DNA of 60,319 nucleotides, the filler included. It is 4 parts of 4 records of this genome, joined end to end, with 100 filler letters (N's around TTAATTAATTAA, not from the genome) between each part and the next. Parts side by side here need not be neighbours in the genome. Positions count along the whole stretch, not along the records: positions 40,513 to 50,202 come from DRR378314_2647; 3 more parts are not named here. One strand, given 5' to 3'. Below the pieces are notes generated by a model. That model worked only from the letters and a program-made list of their open reading frames with translations. It was not told the origin of the DNA and made no database searches. Positions 2,706 to 50,202 of the stretch are shown piece after piece. A program made the translations under genes and the position numbers. How positions within the stretch are numbered: position 1 is the first letter of the stretch; each line of letters starts with the position of its first letter.

Positions 2706-5700
2706 TCAAGGTACCGCCTGTACCGGCGGTGCAGCAGGTAGGAGCGCCTGAAGCTTCGCGCGAGCCACCGGTCCGCGCCACGGCTTGGCGCCAACTTGTC
2801 CACCATTCGCAGCGTTGGTCCCGAGGGCTCCTCCTCCCGCAAACGCAAGCGCATTTTCCATGGCGAGCGCTCCTGCAGCGGCATAAGCCGTAGAGAGCTG
2901 CGGTGAGAAGAACTGGCACCCTGTAGAATGGTTCGGGAACGATCCTGCTGGGTCGCATTGGCAGCACACCAGGCAGCCGGTGCAGCAGAGCGCGTGCGTC
3001 CCCGCTTCTAAACTGGCTACATCGCTGAAAGCTGGATTTTCTTCGTTCAGCTTTTCGTAGCAAGCGAATGCAGCAGCCACATCTTCCGAATCGAGAAGCT
3101 CGCGCGGTTTTAGGTAAAGCACAACAGTCTCGCGATCATATTGAGTGCCAGTCTCTGGGTTGAAAAACCGTAGCCCGAACACGAAGAATCGCTCGGTGTG
3201 CAGTTTCGAAAACTCCTCCAGTGCACTGTCGAGGTTTGCTGCAGGCCGATTCGCCCCTCCGCCGCCTTCACACCAAGAATCGAAGATGTGCGGTTCAACC
3301 AATCTCCCATATTCGTTGCGCAGATAGTCCAAAAATTTCGTGAGCCCGGCGCACGTTTGCGTTTTCCCATCCCTGCCGTCCTGCTCTCCGTCGGCGACAA
3401 TGAGCAGCTTGACGCGCTCGTACACAAGAGGAAGCATAGCGAGATTCTCGCTGTGCCCACCGTCGGATACATAAATGGCGGGTGGAATATCCACGTCCGC
3501 ATTTAATCCTCCTTCACTTTTTTTTTGGGCATTTGCGTAACGCTCTGCGTTGCGTTTCACATCCAAGCGAAACAAAATTCGCACGGACTGCATAAATGGG
3601 AGGCTCCACAGCAGCGCAGCAGCACCGCCCCAGAAGCCTTCGCGTTTGCCATAACACGCAGACGTGAAGGCCGATCCAAAGATAAGCAAAACGACCAGCA
3701 GAACAAAAGTGGTCCACACCGACCATTGGTTCTCGTTCTCAACTGGTGTGGAAGCATAAGCGATAAACCAGGAAGCAACAAAGAGCCACAGTAGGGCAAT
3801 TCCGACCCAAAACTTTGGACGGGAGTTGAACCACGGATGAAAGCGTCCGACGCGAATCCATCGGCCAAAAGACAAGGATATCACGCCGAGACACCCGTGG
3901 ATAAATTTGTTCATAGACACGCCTGCCTCACCGAGTTCGTGGGCAACTGCAGCCCCAGAAATTGCCATCATCTTGTCGAGATCTTTAGCATCGTGCGCAA
4001 ACTTGTCTTTTTCGTCTGAATTCTCCGCAAGCTTTACACTGTGCTCGACTGCAGTATACTGGCCGATCTCCCTGTGAGGAGGATATTCTCGCGCATTGTT
4101 CCCATTTCCTTGCACACCCTGGCTTGCTTTTTTGGCTCGGCTCTCACCGAACAGTGCATTCTTGAAAAAGACGATTCGGTCATCAGAGTACCCGGCAAAG
4201 AGATAGCCTTTATCGTTTGGGTTATCTTCGCCGTATTCTGGAAAAGCGAACAGCCACTGCGAGATGGTGATTCCTGTGTATAGCTTTGGAAGGTGCTCGG
4301 AGGACTTTGGGAACTGCGTTCGTTTCGCACGCCAAGAGCCCTCGTAAAAGGCCAACCGCAGACGCCAACGGTAATAATAGTGTAGCCACGTGCTATGTAG
4401 CTCCAGTAGGGCGGGGTGGACGATGAATAGGACTGTCATGAGCGGAATGACGACGTTGAGCGCTTCTTTGTAATCGCCGGCGCGGCAATGGAGCGGCCAG
4501 GCCATTTTGCAACGGTCGTAGTCGTTGCGACATGTCAAGCAGATTTGCATGTCGTGAACAATAGCAACAACGTAGCCGTATCCAAAAGCAAGAGCGCCAG
4601 ACGAGAGCAAAGACACAATGAGACCAGAACCGATACCGGAAAGAAGGAACGAGGCAAGGAATGGAAGAGTCGCCAAACTGGGATCTTCGTGTCCATTCGC
4701 CTCCGTCAAGAGACGAGCGAAGATCACAACGACAAAGATGGTCAGCGTAACCGCACATGCCATATTCGTTGCGGTTCGAATACCTATATCCAAGGCTCCT
4801 CCTTGGAGGCAACATCGATTCCCGTCTTCGTCATACTTGAACACTAGGGAATCAAAACATAGACGAATGAAGTACCAGAATACAGAAACACCCAAAACTA
4901 CGAAGAAGGGTGTGGCGACTCCATCACAGAGCAGATCAACAGTCTCCGCAAGGACAAAGAATCGCGCCAGAAACACCGCGAGAGCGCCATGCCGACCAAG
5001 GTACAGAAAGAAGAAACCGAAAAGCGCAGCGATTAGCACCATAGCATCCAAGAAAGCTCTGTAAAATCTCCACGACAGGCAGAGTGAACAGTCGATCAGA
5101 TAACCTGCATGGCTCCGGAAACTGCTGAAAAACTGTTTATACTGCGCCCAATCGCCATTGTTTCTCTGCAACCAGTGCACGAAAGCCGTTCCAAGGTATC
5201 CTCCTCCAGACACAGTCGACAGGACATCGAACGGGCGCTTATCGTACTTTTTTCCCATGCACTGCTCTTGATACTGCAAAAATTTCTGCAATACACCACT
5301 CGAAAACGATGCGCTGCGTATTCCGCCACCCGACAATGCAATACCGATATTCACGGAATCTCGAGTTTGCAGCGACGAGCTTCCCGCGGTGCTCGTGCTC
5401 GGGACCGACGCCAACGGCTGGCCCGGTGTCTCGCTGGCGCCCGAGGACTTCGCGGGACACCAGTGATTAATAGCACGAAAAATCAACGGGATGATCCCAA
5501 CAATACTCGTGATAACAAACAGTGTAACTGTTACACCATAAATTGGACATTCTGATGCTGAAAAATCGGTCAGGTCCGCTCCCACGCAAGAGAAGTTCCG
5601 CGCGGTGGCAGGACACTCGCCGCACAGCCCGTAGTCCGCATGAAACGTGTCATTACACACCGCGCTCGCGGCGACCTGCAGCGGAACCGCGTACGACATC

Positions 5701-5741: not shown

Positions 5742-8700
5742 GAATTCACGGGCAAAGGCAAGGAAAGATGTTCTGTCTTGAGGAAGGTTGCAGAGCGGGG
5801 TGGCCTCGAGCAGTCAATACGTGGCACTGGCTGAGAAAGTGGTGATACTGGGAAGGCGTGCCGGCACAGTCCTGGGGCGCGCGGAGCAACACACAGGCGA
5901 AAGTTCGCTATCCACGCAGACGGGAAGAGCGCCGCGTAAGGCTCATGGAGCACGCCCCAAGGAGCACATGACGAACGTGCAGTGTGTCACAACAAGAGGA
6001 TCGCGTCCAGGAGGTTCGATCTCGCTCCCGGCAGTCCGACCGCTCGCTAGCACGCAGCAGAGGGGAACGCGCGCCGAACAAGCACGGGCGCGCTGCACGG
6101 CGCTGGCGAGGGCACGAGCACGATACAGAAACGCGTGTAGCCCTACTATCCCAAGCGATGTTGGCGCCGAGCGGCACATTTCTCTGCGGACGCCAAACCA
6201 GCGCAATGTAACGAATACAATCAGGTATTCGGCCGGGGGGGCTCAAAGTACTTCCACGCAGCGCTACATGTGACACGGTATCTTGTATTCGTGCTCGAGT
6301 TGGGAGTCTTTGCGAGAGGAAAAATAAATGAGCAACAGCACGTCGTCCTCTTGCACAGGGCGCGACCGGGACGGTTAGGCGCACGAGGTGCGGCAGCGAG
6401 GCCGGGACGCAGCGACGGCGGAACGAGGATGACCGCCACAGCACGAGCAAAAACGAACAAAAATGAATGGGGAGAAAAATTCGCCCCCTCTGGCACAGCA
6501 GCTTTGCCCTCGCTTCAACTCATCACCCTCGTTTTTCGTACGACAAGCAGCGCCAGGCGACCTACGTAGAGCCCGCCACGGCAAAGGTTTCTAGGCGTTG
6601 GTGGCAGGCGGTGCGCGATGCGGTTCACAACGGTGGGCGCTTGCAAGAGGTGGACGCAGAGCGGCGCGGAGAGAAAACGCCGACGCCAAGACCAGAAAAA
6701 AATGGCAAAGCAATGCGCACAAACGTACAGCTCGTCAGCAAAACTGTCTTTCGAAAGGAAACTCTATTTGTGAGCGAATAGAAGATGGAAGGACTGAACG
6801 GAGCAGGATTTCGCCTATTGCTAAACGAGTGCACACACCTTTACGCTAGCGCTGAGTGCGTGCACCGGGTGCCTTTTGGCCGGGACGCGGACGATGCACC
6901 GCAGCTCAAGTGCTTTACAGCCTCTCCAGTGGATTGCCAACTTTTGCCGACGCTATGCTGTGGCTGTGTCCTGGCGGTACCTGCTCCTTTTCGTGCACGA
7001 AGCAACTCTACTGATGTCAGCAGCTAGGAAGCCGTGAATGCTTGCGAGTTGTCGGCCTCGCTATGGTTCGTCATAGTGCACACACCTTGCGATGTCAGAG
7101 GTGCCGGGGAAGAGAACATCCGTCGCAACAACAGTCCAACGCGGCAGTCTGCAAGAGGTTGGACGAGCAGCAGAACGGGAGGGAACGTGCACGTGGAAGC
7201 TGTGCGCTGGAGCGAAGCTCTTGTGGAGCCGCACCTGCCTGGGGGAGAGCCGCGCGGGAGCGCAGTGTCTGGCTGGGGTACTAGGGTTCTACCCCCGACC
7301 GCACGGCGGTCCCATCGAGCGAGCGCGGAGTTCCGCAGCCTCTGCTGGGCACAGAAGAGCCGAGTACATCCCAGGTGCGTCCCAGGAGGCCCTGTTCGAA
7401 TTATGGTCAAAATCGGCTGTCTATCATGTGCAAATATATATATTGAATGAAAAACATCTGGGAAATTTCGTACAAGAATCCTACAACGAACGTTGGCTCT
7501 GTTTGTGCGCCGCGCGCGGCTTCGCTCAAGGTGGGAGCGAGTGACAACGCCCCGAGTGTCCCGGCGGCCGTCGCAGTGCGCTGTGCTCCGCGAGTTTCTG
7601 CATTTGCCGTCGACCTCGCCGTGCAACGCTGAGCAAGGAATTCCTGCATGGCCAAATCAATTGCGCTATAGTTAATGTAACGAAGCGCTCCTCATGAACC
7701 CTTTGATGGCGCGGATTTTGTGGGCTTGGGAAGCGGAGGGGGGGCGCGCCTGAAGCATTTTCATGTCCTCGAGGAAGACACGCTGCGCGCGCACGCGCTG
7801 CCCATGCGGGACGGCGGGACAGTGGAAGTGGATGCGCTGGCGTTTCTGCGAGACGGACACGGCCTGGAGACCTCCTAGGCATCCCACGTATACATCACAA
7901 AGATCGAAGACAGATCCTTGGATATTCATGTACATGTTCGACATGATGGAGATCTCGAGAAGTGCCAAAGCGCAGCGACGGCGCTTTTCGTCTCGCCCGA
8001 GGGCGGCTCTCCGGTCACGCCTGCGCGATCCTATCGCACAGCGGTTGCGAGCAGGGCCGGCGCTATGCCAGTCCGCCGTACGTTCGCACACTCGGGCTCC
8101 TGGGACAAGTGAAAAGTCGCTACCGTGCAGAAGTGCCTGTGTGCTCGAAGATTTTCGGTACGTACGTGCTTGACGTGGCACGGGTGGTCTCCGTATGCCG
8201 TTCTGCTCCAATTCTCGCATCACGACAGCCGGCCGCAACTTTCCTCTCGATAGTCGTGTTCGACTACAAGAAGCTCGAAAAGGTATGCGAATGTCAACGG
8301 GAAAAACTACTTGTGATACAGATAATTCGGCTATCATCTATACGGAGTACCTTGTGCGCTGGAAAGATGGTACATCATCGGAGGACGAGTAAAAGAGGTG
8401 CTCACGCGCGGCCACTGGGTGACGAATTAAACGGCGTTTGTTGCTACCGGGACGGAATTAATCAACATTCTGTAGCAGCGGGAAGCGGGAGGCGACTCCA
8501 CTTTATTCATCTCCCACCGTTTTATTCTCGTCATCGTTTTCTTCATCGAATAATACATAACCAACTCTCTCCCTCTTGATTTATCAACGCAATCAAGATC
8601 GCTATGCAGAAAAGTACGCCATAAACGATGTAGCGAGACGATAGTAGGGAAAGCGGATAGGCACAGATTGGTTCTGATGCGCTCTCCACATGTCCGCAGG

Positions 8701-40512: not shown

Positions 40513-40549
40513 CGCAGGGGGTCGCGGGTTCGAGTCCCGTCCAGACCGC
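40513..40549 (+). tRNA. 3' half of tRNA, most likely tRNA-Asp(GTC); truncated by contig start
   Basis: CGCAGGGGGTCGCGGGTTCGAGTCCCGTCCAGACCGC comprises the 3' anticodon stem, variable loop, T-arm (GGTTCGAGTCCC) and acceptor strand, and is typical of bacterial tRNA-Asp. The anticodon itself is not in the contig. Confidence 0.8.
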
Positions 40550-40574
40550 TGGAATTCGTTCAAGAATTCGCAAT

Positions 40575-40607
40575 AAGCCTGTAAATCAAGTATTTACAGG
40601 CTTTTTT
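40575..40607 (+). terminator. Hairpin plus T-tract downstream of tRNA/att site
   Basis: AAGCCTGTAAAT-CAAGT-ATTTACAGGCTT followed by TTTT. Confidence 0.65.
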
Positions 40608-40650
40608 GTTTTTTTTGATATCAAATAATACCATATAAAACCAATAAAAA

Positions 40651-40670
40651 GGTGACTCTCACGGTGCCTC
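40651..40670 (+). promoter_or_regulatory. Putative integrase arm-type binding sites (left end)
   Basis: AAAA-GGTGACTCTCAC-GGTGCC here and AAAA-GGTGAGCAGGAC-GGTGAG at 50101-50120 have the same 12-bp spacing. Further GGTGAC/GTCACC copies lie at about 40690 and 40765-40788. Confidence 0.5.
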
Positions 40671-40789
40671 TGAACACTCCTTTGAAAGAGTCACCGCCAT
40701 CGCTGTAATTGACTGTTAAAGAAATCTTTACGAAGAAATTTTAACATTTGGTTTTACTACCTTCCGGTGACTATTTTAAAGTGTCACCA

Positions 40790-42046
40790 ATGTCTGGAAC
40801 CATCAACATCCTATTTTACCCAAAAAAAAGAGAATCCGATACAGACGGAAAAGTAACTGTTTATTGTAGAGTAACCGTTAATTCAAGACGTGCCGAATTC
40901 AGCCTTAGGCGTTCTGTGGATGAACAAAGATGGGACTCCCATAGTGGACGATTAAGAGGAACAGGCATTGAAGTATCCAAGTTCAACAGATTTCTGGATA
41001 CCGTCAAAAACCGTTGCTTTGAAATATATGATACCCTGCTCAGGGAACATCAGGATATTTCAGCTTCCATCATAAAGAACATTTATCTGGGAAAGGAAGG
41101 TAAGGAATGGATGGTATTGGAAATCTTTCAGGATCACAATGATGAAATGGAGAGCCTGATCGGGAAAGGATTTACCAAAGGGACCTTGCAGCGGTACAAT
41201 GCGGCCAAAAAACACGTATCAGATTATGTAAAACATACCTATCACCGGAACGATATACCTGTAAAAAAAGTTGACCACAAGTTTATCACCGGGTTGGAGC
41301 ATTTCTTGAAATCCAAAAAGAACTGCGACCACAATACCGCCGTTAAATATATTGTCAACTTCAAGAAAATCATTCGGATTGCCTATGCCAACCAATGGAT
41401 AAACAGAGACCCCTTCTTTCATTGGAAGGCCACTTGGAAAACCAAAGAGAAGCAATTTCTAACCCAAGCTGAGCTTGATACATTGCGAAGCAAAGAATCA
41501 TTTTTACCTCGTCTTGATTTGGTGAGGGATATTTTTGTCTTCTGTTGCTATACAGGTTTGGCTTATTCCGATGTGAAACAATTGAAACAAGGCGATATTA
41601 TAATCGGTGTTAACGGAGAAAGATGGATTAAAATGGCCAGAAAGAAAACTGGGTCCATAAGCAGCATCCCCCTGCTCCCAGTTGCGGAATCCATTATAGA
41701 AAAATACAACGAGCATCCTTATGTGTTGGATGGCAAAGGTGTTTTACCTGTACTCACCAATCAGAAATCAAATTCATATTTAAAAGAAATAGCTGATGTT
41801 TGTGGCATCCGTAAAAACCTAACAACCCACTTGGCCAGACATACCTTTGCCACAACCGTAACTTTGTCAAACGGTGTATCCATTGCCTCAGTGAGCAAAA
41901 TGTTGGGACATCGTTCCTTAAAGACCACTCAGATTTATGCCAAAGTTCTTGATACCAAAATTGCTGATGAAATGGATTTACTAAAAGAACGGTTAAAAGA
42001 GAAAGAGAGTCAAAAACCAGAGAATAAAACTCCATCCAAAACGTAA
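40790..42046 (+). CDS. Bacteroidetes-type site-specific tyrosine integrase (arm-binding + SAM-like + catalytic domains)
   Basis: N-terminal VYCRVTVNSRRAEFS, FCCYTGLAYSDV, HLARHTFATT, VSKMLGH and TTQIYA motifs; ATG 40790. Confidence 0.93.
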   Translation: MSGTINILFYPKKRESDTDGKVTVYCRVTVNSRRAEFSLRRSVDEQRWDSHSGRLRGTGIEVSKFNRFLDTVKNRCFEIYDTLLREHQDISASIIKNIYLGKEGKEWMVLEIFQDHNDEMESLIGKGFTKGTLQRYNAAKKHVSDYVKHTYHRNDIPVKKVDHKFITGLEHFLKSKKNCDHNTAVKYIVNFKKIIRIAYANQWINRDPFFHWKATWKTKEKQFLTQAELDTLRSKESFLPRLDLVRDIFVFCCYTGLAYSDVKQLKQGDIIIGVNGERWIKMARKKTGSISSIPLLPVAESIIEKYNEHPYVLDGKGVLPVLTNQKSNSYLKEIADVCGIRKNLTTHLARHTFATTVTLSNGVSIASVSKMLGHRSLKTTQIYAKVLDTKIADEMDLLKERLKEKESQKPENKTPSKT

Positions 42047-42648
42047 TCAAGTCCCAAACTTACCCCAAAACTTTGCGCTTGGATCCTGTTCCAATTTTAT
42101 AGCATTCGGGAAGATAAGCGTAAAGTAAAATTGGAATAGGGCGCACAACCTATTTTATATAATACATTGAGATGTTCCGGAAGTGGGCAAATCTCGGGAT
42201 ACGGAGTAGGCCGAGTTTGAATAGCGAGAGGGTAGCACGCCAAGGCGGTGCTACGTATTCAAATTTCGGCCCAAAGGGCCAGTGGAATCAAGTTTTTTTA
42301 TAATAAACCCTAATGATCAAACATCGATTTTTGCTGTAAAACCTCTGGAAACCCTTAAAAATACTAAAAAGATTTACTGTAAAAATTTGAGAACATTGAT
42401 TGGAACAGAGGTTTCTTTTGACCGTTCCGGATGGATGGACATGCCATTGATTCCTTTCAAGAAAATGGGTCAAATCCTATTAAATGCCATATAGACAGGA
42501 GAAAATATGGACCAGTTTTGGCTGGAGTATTGTCGTTTGCCTCGCTCAGTAAGGTTAGTTTGGCAAGATTTGGGGCTTGCAGCACTCCACTTCGTTGCGT
42601 TTGCTTTAGTATTGATTTCAGATTTATGATCAGGGTTTTTAAAGGCAC

Positions 42649-42731
42649 CGTTTTATTGAACTTTCAACCATAAACAAGTTCACTGATAATAAGGAGTTTA
42701 CTTTTTCCGTACACTTAAATAGTTTACCTTA
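42649..42731. promoter_or_regulatory. Putative res site upstream of the serine resolvase
   Basis: CGTTTTATTGAACTTT (42649-42664; reverse complement AAAGTTCAATAAAACG, 14/16 to the array motif). It is followed by imperfect dyads AAGTTCAC...GTTTACTT and GTACAC...GTTTAC just before the resolvase ATG. Confidence 0.55.
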
Positions 42732-42753
42732 TATACCCTTTTTTGCCCCTAAG

Positions 42754-43427
42754 ATGAAATTCGGATATGCAAGAGTGAGCACAAAATCACAAAAACACAA
42801 TTTACAGGTGGATGCCTTTTTGAAAGAAGGAATCAAACACAAGAACATCTATGCGGATATTTCATCTGGAGCAAAAGCTGAACGAAAAGGACTCGATGAG
42901 CTTTTGTCCATTTTGAGAGAGGGTGATACACTTGTGGTCTGGAAACTGGACCGAATAGCCAGAAGTCTTTCACACTTGACAAAACTTATTTAGGATTTTG
43001 AGAAAAAGGGAATCCACTTTAAAAGCATTCAGGAGAATTTCATTGATACAACATCCCTACATGGAATGTTTATCTTCAATCTTTTTGCATCATTTGCCCA
43101 ATTGGAACGGGACATCATTATTCAACGAACAAGGGCTGGGCTAGAAAGTTCAAGAAGGCGTGGTTTGAAAATTGGAAGAAAGCCTGGTCTTAGCAATAAG
43201 GCATTGCACAAAGCCATGCTGGCGGAAAGATATTACAGGGACAATAAACTGAGCATTGAAGAAATCATGAAACTCATTGATGTTGGTTCTAAAAAGACCC
43301 TTTATAAAATTTGGCATATCAAGGCAGAAGAAAGTGTATGGAATGCGGAAATCTATTTTGGGATAAGAAACAATCTTTCGACAAAGCTTATTGCAAAAAG
43401 CACAAAAGGAATATCAAAACCAGTTGA
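42754..43427 (+). pseudogene. Serine recombinase (resolvase/invertase family) disrupted by a nonsense codon and a 1-bp frameshift
   Basis: MKFGYARVST (catalytic Ser), LREGDTLVVWKLDRIARS. TAG at 42991-42993 is followed in the same frame by ...FAQLERDIIIQRTRAGL...GRKP and an HTH. After a shift near 43309 the reading continues LAYQGRRKCMEC...YCKKH to TGA 43425-43427. Confidence 0.88.
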
Positions 43428-43515
43428 CCGTTTAACTCTCCTTTCACCGAAAACCCAATTTTTTACAATTGGAAATTCCCTACATTTATTCGATCTTTAA
43501 GGAAACTAACGTGTA

Positions 43516-44256
43516 ATGCTCAAGTTCTTTCGAAAAATCCGTCAAAACTTGCTTTCAGAAGGCAAAACTGGAAAGTATTTGAAATATGCCATTGGTGAAA
43601 TCATTCTCGTTGTTATTGGGATTTTAATTGCCTTACAGATTAATAATTGGAATGAAAATAGAAAATTACAAAATATTGAACATAACTATTTAAAATTGTT
43701 ATTGGAAGATTTAGATGAAGAATCTATTAATCTAAATAATGCAATTTCTAATTCAGAGGAACTGATTACAAGATATGAGGAGTATGAAGAAAAGGCTAAC
43801 AACTCAAATATGGGTTTACTAGAAATTACTAGTAGTTTATCAAAGGTGGATCCTGCGGTAGTAACACCTATTTTCAAAATTGATGTTATGGAAACTTTAA
43901 TATCCACTGGTGATATAAAACTAATTCCAACTGAAATAAGAAAGAAAATCATTGAATTAAATAACGCTCAAGAATATATAAGACAGATCACTAAAAGAAA
44001 CGGTACTATTCATGCTGAGCAAATATACGAATTGGGAAAAATAGGATGGAGTAAAGCAGTCGGAAGATTAATTAAAAACCCTGCAACCAATATAGCTTTC
44101 ACCGATGAGAGGATTATTCAAATAATCTTCGCTGTGGAATCGGTATATTACATGAAATACGAAAATGAAAAATTTTATATTGCAAAATATGAAGGAATGC
44201 TTAGCGACATAATTGGTTTAAAAAAGGAAATAAGGTTGGAGTTAAATCAAAAATGA
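43516..44256 (+). CDS. DUF6090-like N-terminally anchored membrane protein
   Basis: Begins MLKFFRKIRQNLLSEGKTGKYLKYAIGEIILVVIGILIALQINNWNE, a conserved Flavobacteriaceae N-terminus. Confidence 0.75.
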   Translation: MLKFFRKIRQNLLSEGKTGKYLKYAIGEIILVVIGILIALQINNWNENRKLQNIEHNYLKLLLEDLDEESINLNNAISNSEELITRYEEYEEKANNSNMGLLEITSSLSKVDPAVVTPIFKIDVMETLISTGDIKLIPTEIRKKIIELNNAQEYIRQITKRNGTIHAEQIYELGKIGWSKAVGRLIKNPATNIAFTDERIIQIIFAVESVYYMKYENEKFYIAKYEGMLSDIIGLKKEIRLELNQK

Positions 44257-44314
44257 TTGCAGATACCCTCAATAAACTTTAATTGTAATTTCAGAGATAA
44301 CAAAAGTAAAACCC

Positions 44315-44427
44315 GGTGTATGGTTGATGGCGAAGTTTGAACTTAATAGAAAAGTCTAGGATTATTCGCTCAATTATCCATCGGATAAAAAAGATTGTGT
44401 GTCTTTCCTCTCTACTAACCATACACC
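44315..44427. repeat. Inverted-repeat element, attC-like fold-back
   Basis: Perfect 11-bp IR: GGTGTATGGTT (44315-44325) and AACCATACACC (44417-44427). Confidence 0.55.
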
Positions 44428-44459
44428 AATCCGTGGGCAAAGTTCAAATAAACGATAAT

Positions 44460-44924
44460 ATGAAGTTCAAGAAATCTTTACAAATGACCGTTTGTCTTAT
44501 CGCTATTTCTCAGTCAGTTTCGTGTAATTCTCAATCTACTAATAGTTCCAACATACAGGGAAATTGGTTTCCAGAATATCTGGGAGATATTAACGAAGTT
44601 TATACGGAATTTTATATTGATGATACAAGCGTTTATCATTTTTATCCTATTTCAGAGACAATTTCAGCCAACGAATATTATATCACAAATTCAAAATTAT
44701 ATTTCGGAAAGGACAATGGTGATTCTGCCAAGCTCATGGGTACTGTCTCTATCAAAAATGATACTTTAACTATTGTTAATGAAGCAGGAAATAGTTCATT
44801 CTTGAAACAAAATGAATTACCAAGTTTGGAAGATTTGATTAATGATAATACTTCCTTAGATATTTTTTTCGAGGGATATATTAATCGTGAAGCTGTTTGG
44901 AATGAAAATAAGTACAAGCCGTAA
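44460..44924 (+). CDS. Cassette 1: hypothetical exported protein/putative lipoprotein
   Basis: ATG 5 bp after repeat copy 1; signal-like N-terminus ending SVSC; IQGNW lipocalin-like start. Confidence 0.65.
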   Translation: MKFKKSLQMTVCLIAISQSVSCNSQSTNSSNIQGNWFPEYLGDINEVYTEFYIDDTSVYHFYPISETISANEYYITNSKLYFGKDNGDSAKLMGTVSIKNDTLTIVNEAGNSSFLKQNELPSLEDLINDNTSLDIFFEGYINREAVWNENKYKP

Positions 44925-44959
44925 TTTAAATAAAGTTCAAATAAACGATTGCAAGATTA

Positions 44960-45313
44960 ATGGATTTGCTATTAGAAAACCTCAATGAATCTGAAGGTTC
45001 ATTTTATGAAAAACTACATCAGGAAGGTTATTTTGACAATTCCTTGTTTGCAGAATTGATAATCTACATTGATGGATTAAATTCTAGACAATTATCCGAG
45101 ATCCAGCGATTACGGTATTGTTCTCAAATTTGGGAATTGGCTTACCGTATGCAATCGAGTATTGGGTATAATCATAATCAAAATGACGTATTTCAAATTT
45201 CAAATATAGAAGATGAAAAGTTGATTGAAATCGGACAAGTTCTAGAGTATATAAGCAAATCATTCACCGAAAATAGAATGTTGGATATGGATTTCATTAA
45301 TGAAATAATCTAA
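44960..45313 (+). CDS. Cassette 2: small acidic hypothetical protein (possibly immunity-protein-like)
   Basis: 117-aa ORF filling the interval between repeat copies 2 and 3. Confidence 0.6.
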   Translation: MDLLLENLNESEGSFYEKLHQEGYFDNSLFAELIIYIDGLNSRQLSEIQRLRYCSQIWELAYRMQSSIGYNHNQNDVFQISNIEDEKLIEIGQVLEYISKSFTENRMLDMDFINEII

Positions 45314-45365
45314 CTTATAATCCATTTAAAGTTCAAATAAACGTTGGAAGTAAATTAATTACTGA

Positions 45366-46154
45366 ATGAACAAAATACTATTACTAATGCTGATTTCTTT
45401 GCCAATTTATGGTATTGGACAAATTGCGAACAGACTGCAACCCGATAGTATATATTCAAATCGACAAGTAAAGAAAATATTTGTCTATCTAAATTCACCA
45501 AGAGACTTGTCTGAAATAATTGAGTTTGATCGAAGTGGTAAAAAAATAAGCACAATAAAATACAGTGCATCTTATAATAGAAGAACTCGAAAAGTAAAAT
45601 GGGTTGAAAAAATCAACCAATTTAAATATGACAAGGAAAACAAACTCGTTAAAGTAATAGATTCAATAGGTAAAGACACTACAACCTTCCAGTATGGAAA
45701 AAATGGAAAGCTAAAGTCATCAATTGAAAAAGTTGGGAATTTTGTATACCATGTAAACTATCGTCACAACCCTTTCGGTAAAACGACATTCAGAAAAAAT
45801 GACTCTGTTATCCTTTATCAAAAAACCACAGAATACGATAGGGACTTTTATGTCAAACGATTTTACGGATTTGAACTTGAACCTAAACTAAAAAAGATTA
45901 CCGACACTATTGACGGAATTCCTAATACGCTTGTTTATAAGGACTATAATGATTTGGAAAAGTTTAAAGATGATGAAACTATTACGAATCATTTCAATGC
46001 AAAAGGCATTCTAATAAAATCTGAAATTCATTCGATATTCCTAAATAACAGAGTTAATGATTGGGAGTTGAATTATAAATATTTCAAAAACGGACTTTTA
46101 AAGAGTATTCGTGGATATGTGCCAAGGTACTTTAAATATGAATTCTGGGATTAA
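45366..46154 (+). CDS. Cassette 3: secreted hypothetical protein with YD-like repeats
   Basis: Signal peptide; repeated FKYDKENKL / FQYGKNGKLKS / YKYFKNGLLKS. Confidence 0.65.
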   Translation: MNKILLLMLISLPIYGIGQIANRLQPDSIYSNRQVKKIFVYLNSPRDLSEIIEFDRSGKKISTIKYSASYNRRTRKVKWVEKINQFKYDKENKLVKVIDSIGKDTTTFQYGKNGKLKSSIEKVGNFVYHVNYRHNPFGKTTFRKNDSVILYQKTTEYDRDFYVKRFYGFELEPKLKKITDTIDGIPNTLVYKDYNDLEKFKDDETITNHFNAKGILIKSEIHSIFLNNRVNDWELNYKYFKNGLLKSIRGYVPRYFKYEFWD

Positions 46155-46187
46155 TAAAGTTCAAATAAACGATGACAGATTAAACCA

Positions 46188-47237
46188 ATGACCAATAAAT
46201 TGAGAAAAATTGAAATCAACATATTACCATTAATCCTTTCGATATTATTGGTATTAATCTCCGTTGGAGTTATGATGTCATCTCAGTTTGTTTTCACATC
46301 TAAACAATACATTGGAGTAGTTTGTCTGGCAATTTCTACAATCCTTTATTTCCTAAATAAAAAGTTCTATGTCGTTTTCTTCGCATTGACGTTAACAATG
46401 GGACTATTGGGCTTGTTGGACTTTTATGTAACTACATATAAGGTTGGATTTGCTGGTGCTGGAATCAATCCAATTTTCTTGGGATTGATAATATTATTAT
46501 TGGTGGTGAGCAAAGAACAGATGGGTGGCCTTAGTTACAAAGATGCTCATAATGGTGAACGTAAATTGAATGGAGCCTTGATAGAGTCCTTAATTAAAGA
46601 TTTCAATGCCAAATCAGACTTAGAGTTAAATGAGATTTTGAATAATGATTCAAAATACACTGATGAAGCAAAATCTGCAGCAATTAGTATTTTGGAAAAT
46701 AGAGGAGAAAAGAAAGACACCAAGAAATTTAGATGCTCTGTATGTGGGGAAATCCATGATGAATTACCAGCTCTTGGATTTAAAACTCCGTTCCATTATG
46801 ATATTCTAAATGAGGATAACAAGAGGGAGATTGCCGAAATATCAAGTGATTTTTGCGAAGTTCATCAACCAGAACAAACCGATAGGTTCATTAGAACAGT
46901 TTTGACAATACAGGTGAATGATGCATGTGAAAATCTAGACTATGGAGTTTGGGTTTCATTAAGTGAGGAGAGTTTCAAAGAATATGAAAGAAACTTCAAA
47001 AAGGATTCTGAGGAGAAAGTATATTTCGGAATGATCTGTAATGAAATATCAGATTACGAAGAAAGTACCATTGGTCTTCATGTAAATGTAAAAACTCGAA
47101 ACGGGGGTATTAGGCCTGAGATTATTCCTCATCAAAATGATCATAATTTAATTTCTGATTGGGAAAATGGTATTACCATCAAGGAAGCTGAAAAAAGAGT
47201 AAAATTAACTTTAGAGGCTCCTGGCAATAATTCTTAG
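46188..47237 (+). CDS. Cassette 4: membrane protein fused to a DUF2199-like domain
   Basis: About four N-terminal TM helices; C-terminal half FRCSVCGEIHDELPALGF...DRFIR...LDYGVWVSLSEESF. Confidence 0.7.
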   Translation: MTNKLRKIEINILPLILSILLVLISVGVMMSSQFVFTSKQYIGVVCLAISTILYFLNKKFYVVFFALTLTMGLLGLLDFYVTTYKVGFAGAGINPIFLGLIILLLVVSKEQMGGLSYKDAHNGERKLNGALIESLIKDFNAKSDLELNEILNNDSKYTDEAKSAAISILENRGEKKDTKKFRCSVCGEIHDELPALGFKTPFHYDILNEDNKREIAEISSDFCEVHQPEQTDRFIRTVLTIQVNDACENLDYGVWVSLSEESFKEYERNFKKDSEEKVYFGMICNEISDYEESTIGLHVNVKTRNGGIRPEIIPHQNDHNLISDWENGITIKEAEKRVKLTLEAPGNNS

Positions 47238-47302
47238 AGTGATAGAAACAAGATTAATAAAAGTTCAAATAAACTATTCGAAAACAAGTTGTTGCACATT
47301 TG

Positions 47303-47653
47303 ATGGAGATTTTAAACACAAATAATTTGAGGGTTGAACAATTGGATAAAAACAAATATCTGACTTGGACTTCCGTAATGTATTTTTCATTTGTTCCAAA
47401 GGTCATCTTTGAATTGAATGATGATGGAAAAGTAGCAAATATAAAAATTGTTGGATTTACTAAATCCTTGATGCTAAACTTACTATTTGTAATCGCAGTC
47501 TTCTTGATTTATTTTTTTGTAGAAAATATGGAATTCTCAAGAATTATGGATTTTATCCCTCTCCTTATTGGGATAATAATTCTTCTAATTGTTATAAACT
47601 TTATTATTATCGGAACAACTAAAAGAAAAGTAAAAGAACAGATTGAATATTAA
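47303..47653 (+). CDS. Cassette 5: small membrane protein (possibly 5'-truncated)
   Basis: Two C-terminal TM helices; lies between repeat copies 5 and 6. Confidence 0.55.
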   Translation: MEILNTNNLRVEQLDKNKYLTWTSVMYFSFVPKVIFELNDDGKVANIKIVGFTKSLMLNLLFVIAVFLIYFFVENMEFSRIMDFIPLLIGIIILLIVINFIIIGTTKRKVKEQIEY

Positions 47654-47717
47654 AATAATCTGCCAACAAACACTGAGTTAAATCAAAGTTCAAACAAACG
47701 ATTCAGATAAAACTTAA

Positions 47718-48200
47718 ATGAACGAAAACGAAGATTACTTTAGGATTTCCAAAAATGGAAATGTTCATACCCTGAGCGATCGAATCCCATTCAGATGGAA
47801 AGAACTGATGATTTGGACTTCGACTTCGTTCCTTTTTTTGATTTTTCTCTTAGGGGTTTGGGCTGGAATTTTGGTAGCCATTCTGACATTAATCGGTTAT
47901 ATGTTTTATCGATTTGCAGCCAGTATTTATTACTCAGTTTTGGAAATAGATGAGCAAAGTGGAAGAATGACCAGAACAATGAAATTTCTTGACAGGGTTG
48001 ATAAAGAGGAATTGATAACAGACAAGTTTGACCCGAATCGATTTGAATTTTCTGAATTATCAAGAAGTGGAAAATCAAAGTTCTTAATGAATTATAGAAC
48101 ACATAAAAACAATGAGTTGTTGGTGTTGAAAAACAAAAAAGATAAAGAATTCATACAAAAATATATTTCTGACAATTTTGCTATTGGAAGAAATGTTTAA
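47718..48200 (+). CDS. Cassette 6: hypothetical membrane protein
   Basis: 160 aa with a hydrophobic hairpin; lies between repeat copies 6 and 7. Confidence 0.65.
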   Translation: MNENEDYFRISKNGNVHTLSDRIPFRWKELMIWTSTSFLFLIFLLGVWAGILVAILTLIGYMFYRFAASIYYSVLEIDEQSGRMTRTMKFLDRVDKEELITDKFDPNRFEFSELSRSGKSKFLMNYRTHKNNELLVLKNKKDKEFIQKYISDNFAIGRNV

Positions 48201-48243
48201 ACCAAAGTTTAAATAAACGATAAATACAGATATGTAATAAGTT

Positions 48244-48711
48244 TTGAGAAGACCCAAGAAAATATCGGTAACTAAGCTTTTGATTGTAATAAGTGTCTTT
48301 TCATTTATGTTGTCCTCATGTTCTAGGAATACAGCAAATCTATTTGTTGGTGTCTGGACAATTGAAGATATAGCCTATAAAGGAAAAGATATTGGTGAGA
48401 AAATCTCTTTAAATGCCCTTGTTTTTAAAGAGAACAATGAAGTTATGGTGCCAGGAATTGTTGGTGAGTTATTAAATAAAAAAGACAGACAAGGTAAATG
48501 GAATATTGATGAAGACGGGTTTTTAATCATAACTTCCAACAATCAATATATAAATGGAAGAGCTAAATATTGTTTTGAAAATAGTGAGGATGAAGAACTT
48601 CTTAAAGTTGTAATAGAAACAGAAGAACTGTATATGGAGGCATTTAAACTTTTTAGTAAAAATGACACTTATGGTCGGTTGCCTTGTATCAATAATGCCC
48701 TACCAAAATAG
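48244..48711 (+). CDS. Cassette 7: putative lipoprotein, lipocalin-like
   Basis: Lipobox LSSC followed by LFVGVW and GKWNID motifs; TTG start. Confidence 0.6.
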   Translation: MRRPKKISVTKLLIVISVFSFMLSSCSRNTANLFVGVWTIEDIAYKGKDIGEKISLNALVFKENNEVMVPGIVGELLNKKDRQGKWNIDEDGFLIITSNNQYINGRAKYCFENSEDEELLKVVIETEELYMEAFKLFSKNDTYGRLPCINNALPK

Positions 48712-48790
48712 AATAAGGAAAAAGAAAAGTTCAAATAAACGATCAGATTATATACAAAGAACCTAATACCAGATAAAAAAACACAATAAC

Positions 48791-49342
48791 ATGAAAAAAA
48801 TAGTTGTCTCAGTTCTTTTACTCTCATTCTCCTTCATCACAATGACTGCACAGAGCAATGAAGCTACATTAATATTCAAGGATGGAAGCAAAATATCTGG
48901 ACTTGGCAAATTGACAAATGCTAAAACAATCAAGTTCAGAAAAACAAAAAAGGATAAAAGGCAAGTATTTACGTTCAAGGAAGTAGATACTTTGAAGGTG
49001 AACCATAAGTATGGAACAACAACATATGCTGAATCGGAGATTGAGAATCGAGATGAGCCTGAGGTATTGGAAGTTATCATGGTTTCCAATTCAATTGCCT
49101 ATTACCAAAAATTTAAAATGGGAGCTCCAGGAAGGAGTTCAATTAATTATTACTTAAGAAGAAAAACAGAAAACCGAGCTGTTAATTTTGGTTCAAACCA
49201 GTTGGTCACAAGAAATTTCAAAAAAGTGGCAAAAACATTTTTCAGTGACTGTAAAGAATTGGTACAGGCAATTGAGGATGAAAAATATGGTAGATTTCAA
49301 TTGACCGAAATCATTGAGTTTTATGAGGAGGAATGCAAATAG
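48791..49342 (+). CDS. Cassette 8: secreted hypothetical protein
   Basis: Sec signal MKKIVVSVLLLSFSFITMTAQ; C-terminal FFSDC...IIEFYEEEC. Confidence 0.65.
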   Translation: MKKIVVSVLLLSFSFITMTAQSNEATLIFKDGSKISGLGKLTNAKTIKFRKTKKDKRQVFTFKEVDTLKVNHKYGTTTYAESEIENRDEPEVLEVIMVSNSIAYYQKFKMGAPGRSSINYYLRRKTENRAVNFGSNQLVTRNFKKVAKTFFSDCKELVQAIEDEKYGRFQLTEIIEFYEEECK

Positions 49343-49442
49343 TTAAATTTTAGCCTGTAGAAGTTCAAATAAACGTACACCAAAATGCTTTTATCTGCTA
49401 TCTAGCACGATTTTTGTAACTTTATATTAAAGAGGTATTCCA

Positions 49443-49685
49443 ATGAACATGTCAGAATCAAAATCCACTAAAAAAGAACTGGTAGGTTGGATAGAATCCC
49501 TAAAGGATGATACCATCCTAGGGCTTTTGAATTCAGTGAAACTTTCGAGTGAGGGAAAGTCAGGTGACTGGTGGGACGAACTCACAGAAAGTGACAGGGT
49601 AAATATTCTTTCAGGGATACGAGACTTTGAGCAGGGTCTGACAATGAGCTCAAAAGATTTTTGGAACGGCCTGGCCAATGGATGA
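49443..49685 (+). CDS. Cassette 9a: putative antitoxin (addiction-module component)
   Basis: 80-aa acidic protein with DWWDELTES motif, overlapping the downstream RelE/ParE toxin gene. Confidence 0.7.
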   Translation: MNMSESKSTKKELVGWIESLKDDTILGLLNSVKLSSEGKSGDWWDELTESDRVNILSGIRDFEQGLTMSSKDFWNGLANG

Positions 49686-49974
49686 TTTGTATGAAGTACA
49701 GTGGACCGAAAGGTCCCTATCCAACGCATTGGAAATAAAAGCATATCTAAAAAGAAGATTCAGCAAAAAGGAAATTGTAAGATTTGAGGAACTTTTAAAG
49801 CAATTTGAGAATACTGTATCCAATTTTCCAACGCTTTATACGGAATCACGTAAACAGAAATCATTAAGACGTGCTGTAGTCCATAAAAACACTACTATCT
49901 ATTATATTTTCAAGGAAGATAAGGTTACTGTCATTGCTATGAAAGATAATAGACAGCTCAAACCGAGTGGTTGA
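49678..49974 (+). CDS. Cassette 9b: RelE/ParE-family type II toxin
   Basis: YEVQWTERSLSNALEIKAYL...FPTLY...LRRAVV...TIYYIF...VIAMKDNRQ, a basic protein of about 98 aa. Confidence 0.8.
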   Translation: MDDLYEVQWTERSLSNALEIKAYLKRRFSKKEIVRFEELLKQFENTVSNFPTLYTESRKQKSLRRAVVHKNTTIYYIFKEDKVTVIAMKDNRQLKPSG

Positions 49975-50170
49975 TGTTCAAATAAACCATGAACTTGAAA
50001 CTGAGTTTAGACATTTGCTAAACGAACAATAAAATAAAAGTCAAGATAGGCGACAGGGTATAAAGCAAATTATTCAAACAAATGTTAAACTTTGTTAAAA
50101 GGTGAGCAGGACGGTGAGCACAAAAAACCGTCCCTTCGTAGGCCTTATATAGAGTGTGTTTTGAGTAAAA

Positions 50171-50192
50171 GTTCGAGTCCCGTCCAGACCGC
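50171..50192 (+). repeat. att direct repeat (duplicated tRNA 3' end)
   Basis: Identical to 40528-40549. Confidence 0.93.
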
Positions 50193-50202
50193 AAAAAGCT
50201 TC

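Follow-up and report, generated by a model that had tools for sequence, protein, structure and literature searches.

A single-gene cassette array with an 18-bp junction site in a genomic island of a marine Flavobacteriaceae

The stretch of DNA analyzed here (hereafter, the window; 60,319 nucleotides, filler included) is composed of four contigs joined by N linkers, and the features described below lie on the contig at positions 40513–50202. This contig is a 9.7-kb tRNA-Asp island with a GC content of 34%. It starts with the 3′ half of a tRNA-Asp gene (40513–40549, + strand), which is a 100% match to the tRNA-Asp region of related loci, and the last 22 bp of this half (40528–40549) form attL, whereas a 22-bp copy of the tRNA-Asp 3′ end at the contig end (50171–50192, +) forms attR. 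ARAGORN found tRNA-Asp at the same place in three loci (L002, L004, and L013; L, G, and X numbers are used here for loci, genomes, and sequencing runs). The island has its own tyrosine integrase (40748–42046, +; Pfam Arm-DNA-bind_5, Phage_int_SAM_5, and Phage_integrase). The 20 relatives of this integrase sit beside tRNA-Asp with mixed cargo and no arrays, and we thus assign it to the island and not to the cassette array.

Downstream of the integrase is a small serine recombinase pseudogene (42754–43427, +), with a TAG codon at 42991–42993 and a frameshift near 43308. Both pieces matched Pfam Resolvase, the gene is 78% identical to the intact gene of Flagellimonas pacifica, translations showed the stop and the shifted C-terminus, and a related contig has an extra T after 43308. 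It is followed by a possible decayed primary site (CTACATTTATTCGAT; 43480–43494, +), which was assigned by eye and is weakly supported; in L136 the homologous spacer runs into a good site 83 bp after the recombinase match ends. A DUF6090 gene (43516–44256, +; E = 2.8e-7) lies between the recombinase and the first good site and is possibly a cassette 0; the genes at this position differ among loci.

The sequence-only reading had described ten same-orientation copies of a 16-bp repeat that divide the following region into nine units, and this observation was confirmed. A search with the 16-mer found nine copies on the + strand, of which five are exact (44439, 44932, 45328, 46156, and 48726) and four have one mismatch (47260, 47685, 48204, and 49360), against a chance expectation of 0.11, and none of 100 shuffled sequences reached ten matches. 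The tenth copy, at 49973, is degenerate with three mismatches (GATGTTCAAATAAACC). Eight of the ten copies are followed by AT, as had been stated. An eleventh copy, not listed in that reading, is inverted with two mismatches and lies before the recombinase gene (16-mer at 42649–42664, about 90 bp before the start; 18-bp element at 42647–42664, − strand, ACCGTTTTATTGAACTTT on the + strand, 107 bp before the start). To define the extent of the repeat we made a logo from 139 sites in 19 array regions, which showed that the conserved element has sharp edges and is 18 bp long, AAAGTTCAAATAAA[C/G]GAT, as AT was outside the search pattern yet present at 132 of the 139 sites.

The ten co-oriented sites cut 44439–49990 into nine cassettes, each with one co-oriented ORF except for the last, which holds two. 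Site 1 (44439–44456, +) precedes cassette 1 (44460–44924, +; 154 aa, lipoprotein-like N-terminus, no family), and site 2 (44932–44949, +) precedes cassette 2 (44960–45313, +; 117 aa), which had no Pfam hit and is Imm41-like by language-model features only (score 0.90; a lead). Site 3 (45328–45345, +; ending GTT rather than GAT) is followed by cassette 3 (45366–46154, +; 262 aa, no family), site 4 (46156–46173, +) by cassette 4 (46188–47237, +; 349 aa, DUF2199, Pfam E = 2e-46), site 5 (47260–47277, +) by cassette 5 (47300–47653, +; 117 aa, no family), and site 6 (47685–47702, +) by cassette 6 (47718–48200, +; 160 aa, no family). Site 7 (48204–48221, +) precedes cassette 7 (48244–48711, +; 155 aa from TTG), with a weak lipocalin-like match below the cut-off (E = 0.024), and site 8 (48726–48743, +) precedes cassette 8 (48791–49342, +; 183 aa), with a weak PADLOC PDC-S15 match (E = 1.5e-5). 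Site 9 (49360–49377, +; ending GTA) is followed by cassette 9 (49443–49974, +), in which overlapping 80-aa and 98-aa ORFs encode a putative antitoxin and a RelE/ParE-like toxin (ParE_toxin E = 0.001, 20.1 bits against a cut-off of 23); the same two-gene cassette, 71% identical and also bounded by sites, occurs in G003a. The degenerate site 10 (49973–49990, +; GATGTTCAAATAAACCAT) has no gene after it.

The sequence-only reading interpreted the repeat as a conserved recombination half-site with an AT core, and the locus as a gene capture and shuffling platform run by the adjacent serine recombinase. This interpretation was supported, although no result shows that the recombinase binds or cuts the site. 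A genome-wide distribution upstream of ordinary genes had been given as an outcome that would contradict it, and we instead found the site in clusters. Of 401 Flavobacteriaceae genomes, 18 had four or more hits (hereafter, site-rich genomes), and the reversed control pattern never exceeded four; G342 had 33 hits, mostly in two arrays, and G047 had 29. An exact scan of metagenomes for the 18-mer returned at least 120 hits, and arrays of the site were found in marine metagenome contigs.

To determine whether cassettes are gained, lost, or reordered exactly at the site, a comparison that had been proposed for related islands, we compared array regions with each other and with other sequencing runs. 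Among 31 HSPs of at least 85% identity and 200 bp, 12 of 25 internal left ends and 13 of 23 internal right ends lie at site edges in both partners, whereas about 2% of positions lie near a site. Related cassettes in other genomes begin and end at the site edges, with different neighbors and a different order, and near-identical copies of this window's own cassettes likewise recur in other runs, cut at site edges and with different neighbors and a different order. The stretch 44440–44949 (cassette 1) recurs with nine differences at another position in a 22,087-bp contig of run X22, and 47259–47702 (cassette 5) lies before cassette 1 in the X22/X3 contig, so the order is reversed there. The stretch 44932–46173 (cassettes 2 and 3) recurs in a 5,610-bp contig of run X7 with six differences, and 48726–50200 also recurs. 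G047 holds two 98% identical copies of one cassette in different arrays. All of this junction evidence comes from assembled contigs, not from raw reads or experiments. G342a and L081 are 99.98% identical over 5,621 bp up to and through the site and then diverge immediately after GAT, while the right side of L081 equals L103 and L089, which carry other site variants. The site thus travels with the upstream cassette, although position 14 (C/G) does not follow either flank consistently, and the crossover maps to the final GAT, which fits the AT core proposed from sequence alone.

We also considered whether the motif is mainly an expression signal for island genes, such as a translation start region or an RNA processing or binding site, with the modular breakpoints arising from occasional homology-driven exchange at the shared 18-mer. 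The motif is A-rich and co-oriented with the genes, and an ATG starts at its AT at 111 of 316 sites, 46 of which open an ORF of at least 50 codons. However, the motif variants are inherited with the upstream cassette and not with the gene they precede, arrays end with a site that no co-oriented gene follows (this window, G300c, and G300d), and the distance to the start codon varies from 0 to over 100 bp. Moreover, 18 bp is short for RecA-dependent exchange, and the crossovers cluster at the 3′ edge of the motif rather than being spread across it. We regard this explanation as quite unlikely.

To seek evidence of a relationship between the site and the serine recombinase, an association that had been named as a test, we searched for homologs of the 42754–43427 gene. 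They were present in 11 of 18 site-rich genomes and in 6 of 383 others, a genome-level association that was not corrected for phylogeny. The recombinase is the most recurrent gene family across 99 array regions and was found in 16 of them; in 15 it is at the head of the array, always co-oriented, with 0 sites upstream and 1–17 downstream. An inverted site-like sequence lies at −104 to −110 in 7 of the 12 recombinase regions examined, and L136 has one 20 bp before a start codon that the ORF caller set about 87 bp early. The proteins are 207–228 aa with a Resolvase-type catalytic domain and a C-terminal helix-turn-helix (PF00239 at E = 5.9e-41 plus HTH_7 in L036, and E = 1.2e-41 in L136), and the closest solved relative is Gin invertase (E = 6.8e-38). 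On the other hand, seven of the 18 site-rich genomes lack a homolog at E ≤ 1e-40, and three of these site-rich genomes (G047, G300, and G358) have no Resolvase-family gene at all.

The site also lacks the form expected for a substrate of such enzymes. It has no dyad symmetry and no second half-site, unlike every characterized crossover site of small serine recombinases; the information content is at most 0.33 bit at every position after the AT, and C, the base that dyad symmetry predicts at +18, is the rarest there (12 of 139). The crossover sites of Gin/Hin DNA invertases and Tn3/gamma-delta resolvases are dyad-symmetric pairs of half-sites around a 2-bp core, helped by accessory sites or an enhancer, and they support only resolution or inversion; these enzymes are also not known to integrate circles. 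Here only one half-site is conserved and the outcome is cassette exchange, and the single orientation of all 15 array-head genes argues against frequent inversion. The systems are alike in the domain composition of the recombinase and in the site copy upstream of its gene, as res lies before tnpR, and by inference the crossover next to a nearly invariant AT fits a 2-bp central dinucleotide.

Given the site-rich genomes without any serine recombinase and the asymmetry of the site, the cassettes could instead be moved by another recombinase acting in trans, such as a housekeeping or island tyrosine recombinase, with the array-head gene serving island maintenance or regulation. Tyrosine integrases occur in 8 of the 99 array regions, but on either strand and at either end, no other gene family recurs at arrays in a fixed position, and the relatives of the window's integrase carry no arrays. 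This alternative, which we consider unlikely, would leave unexplained the head position of the serine recombinase in 15 of 15 loci and the site copy before its gene.

The arrays are similar to integrons, especially sedentary chromosomal integrons and clusters of attC sites lacking an integrase (CALINs). Both have mostly single, co-oriented, promoterless-looking genes of very diverse or unknown functions, with the recombination site at the 3′ end of each cassette, one extra site at the array head, and a recombinase gene at the head, and in both there are many orphan arrays, decayed recombinase genes, and toxin-antitoxin cassettes. In 196 units of 2.5 kb or less, the longest ORF is co-oriented in 177, reversed in 8, and under 40 codons in 11. 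The exclusion of IntI and attC had been requested in advance, and was addressed by profile searches and folding rather than with IntegronFinder itself. The only tyrosine recombinase scored 45.9 bits against a cut-off of 265 for TIGR02249 and 30.2 against 435 for NF011946. The 120-nt stretches around sites folded more weakly than control stretches (mean −7.1 against −8.5 kcal/mol over 614 folds each), and the 18-bp motif has no conserved partner on either side. A classical integron or a cluster of attC sites is thereby refuted. The candidate recombinase is a small serine recombinase co-oriented with the array rather than a divergent IntI tyrosine recombinase, the site is an asymmetric duplex-type sequence rather than a 57–141-nt folded attC, and the distribution is restricted to Flavobacteriaceae.

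Staphylococcal cassette chromosome (SCC) composite islands likewise have tandem units separated by short direct-repeat integration sites and a serine-family recombinase. However, SCC units are tens of kb, carry their own large ccr genes, and insert at one chromosomal gene end, whereas here the units are single genes, one genome can hold several arrays, and the small recombinases, at 207–228 aa rather than over 400 aa, scored only 40–52 bits with the Ccr models against cut-offs of 700–900.

In the same phylum, rAID-1 arrays of Bacteroidales are low-GC arrays of short co-oriented genes with conserved intergenic motifs downstream of a recombinase (bioRxiv 10.1101/471110; PMC12247911). The locus fits the published criteria in part, with a 5′ co-oriented tyrosine recombinase, ten or more co-oriented ORFs (two or more are required), a GC content of 34% (41% or lower is required), repeated intergenic motifs, and some immunity-like cargo, i.e., Barstar in L002, Imm26, and the Imm41-like lead of cassette 2. 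The identity of the tyrosine recombinase to B. fragilis BF9343_RS08045, for which at least 44% is required, was not measured. The 18-mer is not clustered in 301 Bacteroidales genomes (22 have 1–2 hits, similar to the control), and as it was not compared with the published rAID-1 motif, this leaves undecided whether a family motif is shared. rAID-1 is defined by a XerD-like tyrosine recombinase, while the recurrent array-head gene here is a serine recombinase and most arrays have no tyrosine recombinase at their head. The cargo is also far broader than orphan immunity genes: of 87 cassette ORFs from 18 regions, the listed families are mostly unrelated to immunity and Imm26 appears once. We therefore consider it improbable that the locus is a Flavobacteriaceae member of rAID-1 assembled by the 5′ tyrosine recombinase.

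Taken together, we favor with moderate confidence the explanation that the locus is one member of a Flavobacteriaceae-wide, integron-like gene-cassette system, in which a cassette is usually one co-oriented ORF followed by the 18-bp site, so that n cassettes are bounded by n+1 sites. The comparisons demonstrate that cassettes are exchanged, lost, duplicated, and reordered between genomes with breakpoints at the site edges, and that the first 16 bases of the site travel with the upstream cassette, which places the crossover in or next to the final AT. The remainder of the model is inference, namely that two sites recombine to release a cassette as a circle carrying one site, that such a circle can insert at any site, and that the A-rich site also gives the next cassette a Bacteroidota-type translation start context, with the AT being the start of an ATG at about a third of sites. 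That the enzyme is the array-head serine recombinase is likewise inferred, rests on association only, and is about as likely as not. In this view, its 2-bp staggered cut would fall at the AT, the inverted site copy about 105 bp before its start would serve for binding or autoregulation, and arrays without the gene would be orphans, like attC clusters without an integrase. In this window the recombinase is dead, so the array is probably static, and it rides on a separate tRNA-Asp island moved by a tyrosine integrase.

We found no paper describing this system; the closest known systems are integrons and the rAID-1 arrays of Bacteroidales. Integrons are the standard example of how bacteria collect and reshuffle single genes and are rare or absent in Bacteroidota, and how rAID arrays of gut Bacteroidales are built is still described as an open question (PMC12247911). 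Here the junction site is short and well defined, the crossover is mapped to within about 3 bp, a candidate enzyme sits at a fixed position, and the cultured, non-pathogenic strain Flagellimonas pacifica DSM 25885 carries an intact copy beside an array, which makes the mechanism directly testable. The further possibility, somewhat less likely than not, is that Flavobacteriaceae possess a second, independently evolved integron-type gene-capture platform, in which a small serine recombinase of the resolvase/invertase type uses a single 16-bp half-site plus an AT core as its attC analog to excise and insert single-gene cassettes, and the same site supplies the translation start context, often the AT of the ATG, for the next cassette. 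If the serine recombinase is the enzyme, this would be a new activity for the resolvase/invertase family, i.e., cassette capture on a one-half-site substrate, and it would also point to a pool of mobile genes in abundant marine bacteria.

To test whether the repeated motif of the sequence-only reading is real, we searched the 60-kb window for the 16-mer with up to 2 mismatches. This gave ten matches against 0.11 expected, and 0 of 100 shuffles reached ten. Nine matches are on the + strand between 44439 and 49375, of which five are exact and four have one mismatch. The tenth copy listed in that reading, at 49973, has three mismatches, whereas one further copy, inverted and with two mismatches, lies at 42649-42664, about 90 bp before the resolvase start. 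The ORF layout is as described there, with one co-oriented ORF per unit and an overlapping two-gene pair in the last unit, and eight of ten copies are followed by AT. The observation of the sequence-only reading therefore held.

The window consists of four contigs joined by N/TTAATTAATTAA linkers, with GC contents of 55%, 43%, 34% and 56%, a spread that suggests a mixed bin or foreign islands. The array lies in the contig at 40513-50202, which is 9,690 bp and 34% GC, while its neighbours are 43-56% GC. This contig starts inside the 3' half of tRNA-Asp and ends with a 22-bp copy of the 3' end of the tRNA, and is therefore a complete tRNA-Asp genomic island. In order, the island holds a Bacteroidota-type tyrosine integrase (40748-42046), the inverted site copy, a small serine recombinase gene, a DUF6090 gene, and the array. 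A 49-bp non-coding stretch between the integrase and the inverted site (42536-42583) is 84% conserved in L002 and L003, two related integrase loci, at the same place after their integrases. Its function is unknown, and a search of the contig against Rfam gave no match at E<=0.1.

We first considered the tyrosine integrase as the enzyme of the array. It is 88% identical to that of Flagellimonas pacifica DSM 25885, and 20 relatives were retrieved, which sit beside tRNA-Asp in Flavobacteriaceae and other Bacteroidota. Only 1 of these 20 loci (L002) has an exact match to the core of the motif, a single site before a Barstar gene, and the cargo of the relatives is mixed in orientation. We thus rejected this assignment and take the integrase to move the island, not the cassettes. 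The serine recombinase gene in the window is broken, with a TAG at codon 80 and a frameshift near 43308 that puts the conserved C-terminus in another frame; a related contig has an extra T there.

A genome-wide scan, and the possibility that the motif is a common genomic signal, had been set out beforehand as tests of the capture reading. Genome-wide counts were obtained from relatives. In 401 Flavobacteriaceae genomes the 16-mer (up to 1 mismatch) gave 4 or more hits in 18 genomes and 5 or more in 13, with a maximum of 22, whereas the reversed control pattern never exceeded 4. The hits form co-oriented clusters; for example, genome G342 has two arrays of about 13 and 17 sites on one contig. 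A logo from 139 sites in 19 array regions of 11 genomes showed conservation from position 0 to 17, AAAGTTCAAATAAA[C/G]GAT, and none outside it. The final AT was not part of the search pattern, yet it is present at 132 of 139 sites. No dyad symmetry was found, and nothing resembling a second, inverted half-site follows. A resemblance of the reverse-complemented site to the XerD arm of E. coli dif, judged by eye, was dropped, as no XerC-arm-like signal follows at the expected spacing and there are several arrays per genome.

The exact 18-mer is also frequent in marine metagenome contigs, with at least 120 stretches detected, of which 80 were analyzed as loci. In 301 Bacteroidales genomes it is not clustered, and 22 genomes have 1-2 hits. 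To evaluate a phage origin, we searched IMG/VR and found the exact 18-mer in 21 stretches, of which 18 have one site, two have two and one has three at up to 3 mismatches; a search for close relatives of the recombinase found none. The stretch with three sites (L183, positions 2345-4927) carries them on the same strand within 2.6 kb of a 26% GC viral contig, and this may be a small array in a phage.

To determine whether gain, loss or reordering of genes falls exactly at the motif, as had been proposed as a test, we performed an all-against-all BLASTN of the array regions (named by genome number, with letters for individual regions). Related cassettes in different arrays and genomes show similarity that starts at site offset 0 and stops at offset +17 of the next site, with unrelated flanks. 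Examples are G003b/G342b (92.6% over 544 bp), G047c/G047d (98.2% over 457 bp, same genome), G342a/G342b, G001/G342b and G231/G342b. With the metagenome loci (also given L numbers) added, there are 31 HSPs of at least 85% identity and 200 bp. Of their 25 internal left ends, 12 lie at site edges in both partners, as do 13 of 23 internal right ends, although only about 2% of positions lie within 20 bp of a site. The remaining ends belong mostly to repeats outside arrays and to the recombinase region. The sharpest case is G342a against L081, which are 99.98% identical over 5,621 bp, through an unusual site variant, and diverge at the first base after GAT. The continuation of L081 equals L103 and L089, which have other left flanks and other site variants.

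The cassettes of the window behave the same way. In a 22,087-bp contig found in two sequencing runs (X22 and X3), 47259-47702 (cassette 5) lies about 6.5 kb before 44440-44949 (cassette 1). Stretch 48726-50200 follows with a single difference, so that the right end of the island, including the toxin-antitoxin cassette and attR, differs by 1 base in 1,475, whereas the recombinase gene at the start of the same contig differs at 82 of 514 positions (84% identical), a strong mosaic. A 5,610-bp contig of another run holds 44932-46173 (cassettes 2 and 3). Every internal piece end is within 1 bp of a site edge. Joints in the same comparison whose shorter sides are 20-33 letters, about the length of the repeated site itself, were not counted as evidence of excision, and no conclusion was drawn from parts of the stretch without cover in the runs compared. 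The last cassette, with the toxin-antitoxin pair, also occurs site-bounded and 71% identical in G003a.

Among pairs that share the left flank at 98% identity or more (G342a/L081, L079/L087, G047c/d), the first 14-16 site bases are shared as well, whereas among six pairs that share the right flank at 95% or more the site differs in five. The site therefore belongs to the upstream cassette, as attC does. Position 14 (C/G) follows neither flank consistently, for which we have no explanation. In L103 even position 15 differs while the right flank is identical, which places the crossover in or next to the final AT.

Across 316 sites, the median spacing between neighbouring sites is 662 bp. In 196 units of 2.5 kb or less, the longest ORF is co-oriented in 177, reversed in 8, and shorter than 40 codons in 11. 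An ATG begins at the AT of the site at 111 sites, and 46 of these open an ORF of at least 50 codons. Arrays start and end with a site, including ends where no co-oriented gene follows (this window, and regions G300c and G300d). A role as an expression signal only is at odds with these terminal sites that precede no gene, and with inheritance of the site with the upstream unit.

The cargo is very diverse, and includes TPR, WG repeats, LGT, DUF427, bacterial PH, Mrr, ABM, beta-lactamase and methyltransferase families, with Imm26 once among 87 ORFs and, in addition, Barstar in L002. In the window, only DUF2199 passes a Pfam cut-off, and cassette 2 is Imm41-like by language-model features only. 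A PADLOC search of ten window proteins gave only weak matches, among them one of the cassette 8 protein (48791-49342) to the candidate defence family PDC-S15 (E 1.5e-5).

To seek a candidate enzyme, we clustered all ORFs of the 99 regions. The small serine recombinase ranks first, in 12 regions and always co-oriented with the array, followed by a tyrosine integrase family in 8 regions, on either strand. By TBLASTN the serine recombinase or a remnant of it is in 16 of 99 regions. Fifteen of these are at the array head, with 0 sites upstream and 1-17 downstream, and the first site lies 83 to 6,429 bp after the gene. All 15 array-head genes have the same orientation relative to the array, so there is no sign of the flipping of a Hin-like inversion switch. 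The F. pacifica copy, an intact gene at G001:C13:42946-43629, lies just upstream of region G001. In G342a (L045 and L046 joined, reverse-complemented; 6322-8266), two 99.5% identical 978-bp repeats, each with a 297-aa ORF on the opposite strand, lie between the recombinase and the first site and look like insertion sequences.

Co-occurrence of the motif with homologues of the resolvase had also been named in advance as a test. Homologues at E<=1e-40 occur in 17 of 401 genomes, i.e., 11 of the 18 site-rich genomes against 6 of the other 383 (Fisher p 4e-13, not corrected for phylogeny). A site-like sequence in inverted orientation (ACCGTTTWATTGAACTTT) lies 104-110 bp before the start in 7 of the 12 regions examined, and locus L136 has one 20 bp before an ORF start that was called about 87 bp too early. 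The seven regions that we aligned by eye also share GTTCA-like boxes after that sequence. The protein has the Resolvase domain and an HTH, and its closest solved relatives are Gin invertase (E 6.8e-38) and gamma-delta resolvase. One subgroup of the recombinases (window 43311-43427; locus L001, 14201-14887) ends in a CxxC...CxxH stretch, possibly a zinc-binding tail, which the 207-aa subgroup (locus L036) lacks. The gene is often decayed. Besides the pseudogene in the window, it is riddled with stops in genome G224, and is almost wholly deleted in L101 (reverse-complemented, 351-575), where its upstream region and first few codons are fused to the spacer that normally follows its stop, and the array follows.

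Several lines of evidence count against this enzyme assignment. Genomes G047, G300 and G358 have no Resolvase-family gene at all, although they hold 29, 9 and 8 sites, respectively. The site is a lone half-site, and small serine recombinases are known for resolution or inversion on symmetric sites, not for capture. None of the data show binding of the recombinase to the site or cutting of it. Classical integrons, whose exclusion was another test specified beforehand, were excluded: the integrase is far below the IntI cut-offs, and the sites do not fold, being weaker than controls over 614 folds each.

The rAID-1 arrays of Bacteroidales are the nearest described relative in concept. They combine a tyrosine recombinase, low-GC co-oriented short genes and conserved intergenic motifs, and how they are built is unresolved (10.1101/471110; PMC12247911). 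Literature searches for the motif string and by keyword found no description of the present system in the library searched, figures and supplements (those of the rAID papers may show the rAID-1 motif) not being covered. We conclude that this is a real, family-wide, integron-like cassette system with a precisely mapped junction. The sequence-only reading had proposed a gene capture and shuffling platform run by the adjacent serine recombinase, and this interpretation is supported, although the comparisons show only the cassette exchange at the site, whereas the enzyme is inferred. The serine recombinase is the best candidate, about as likely as not, and the copy in this window is probably a frozen array on a tRNA-Asp island.
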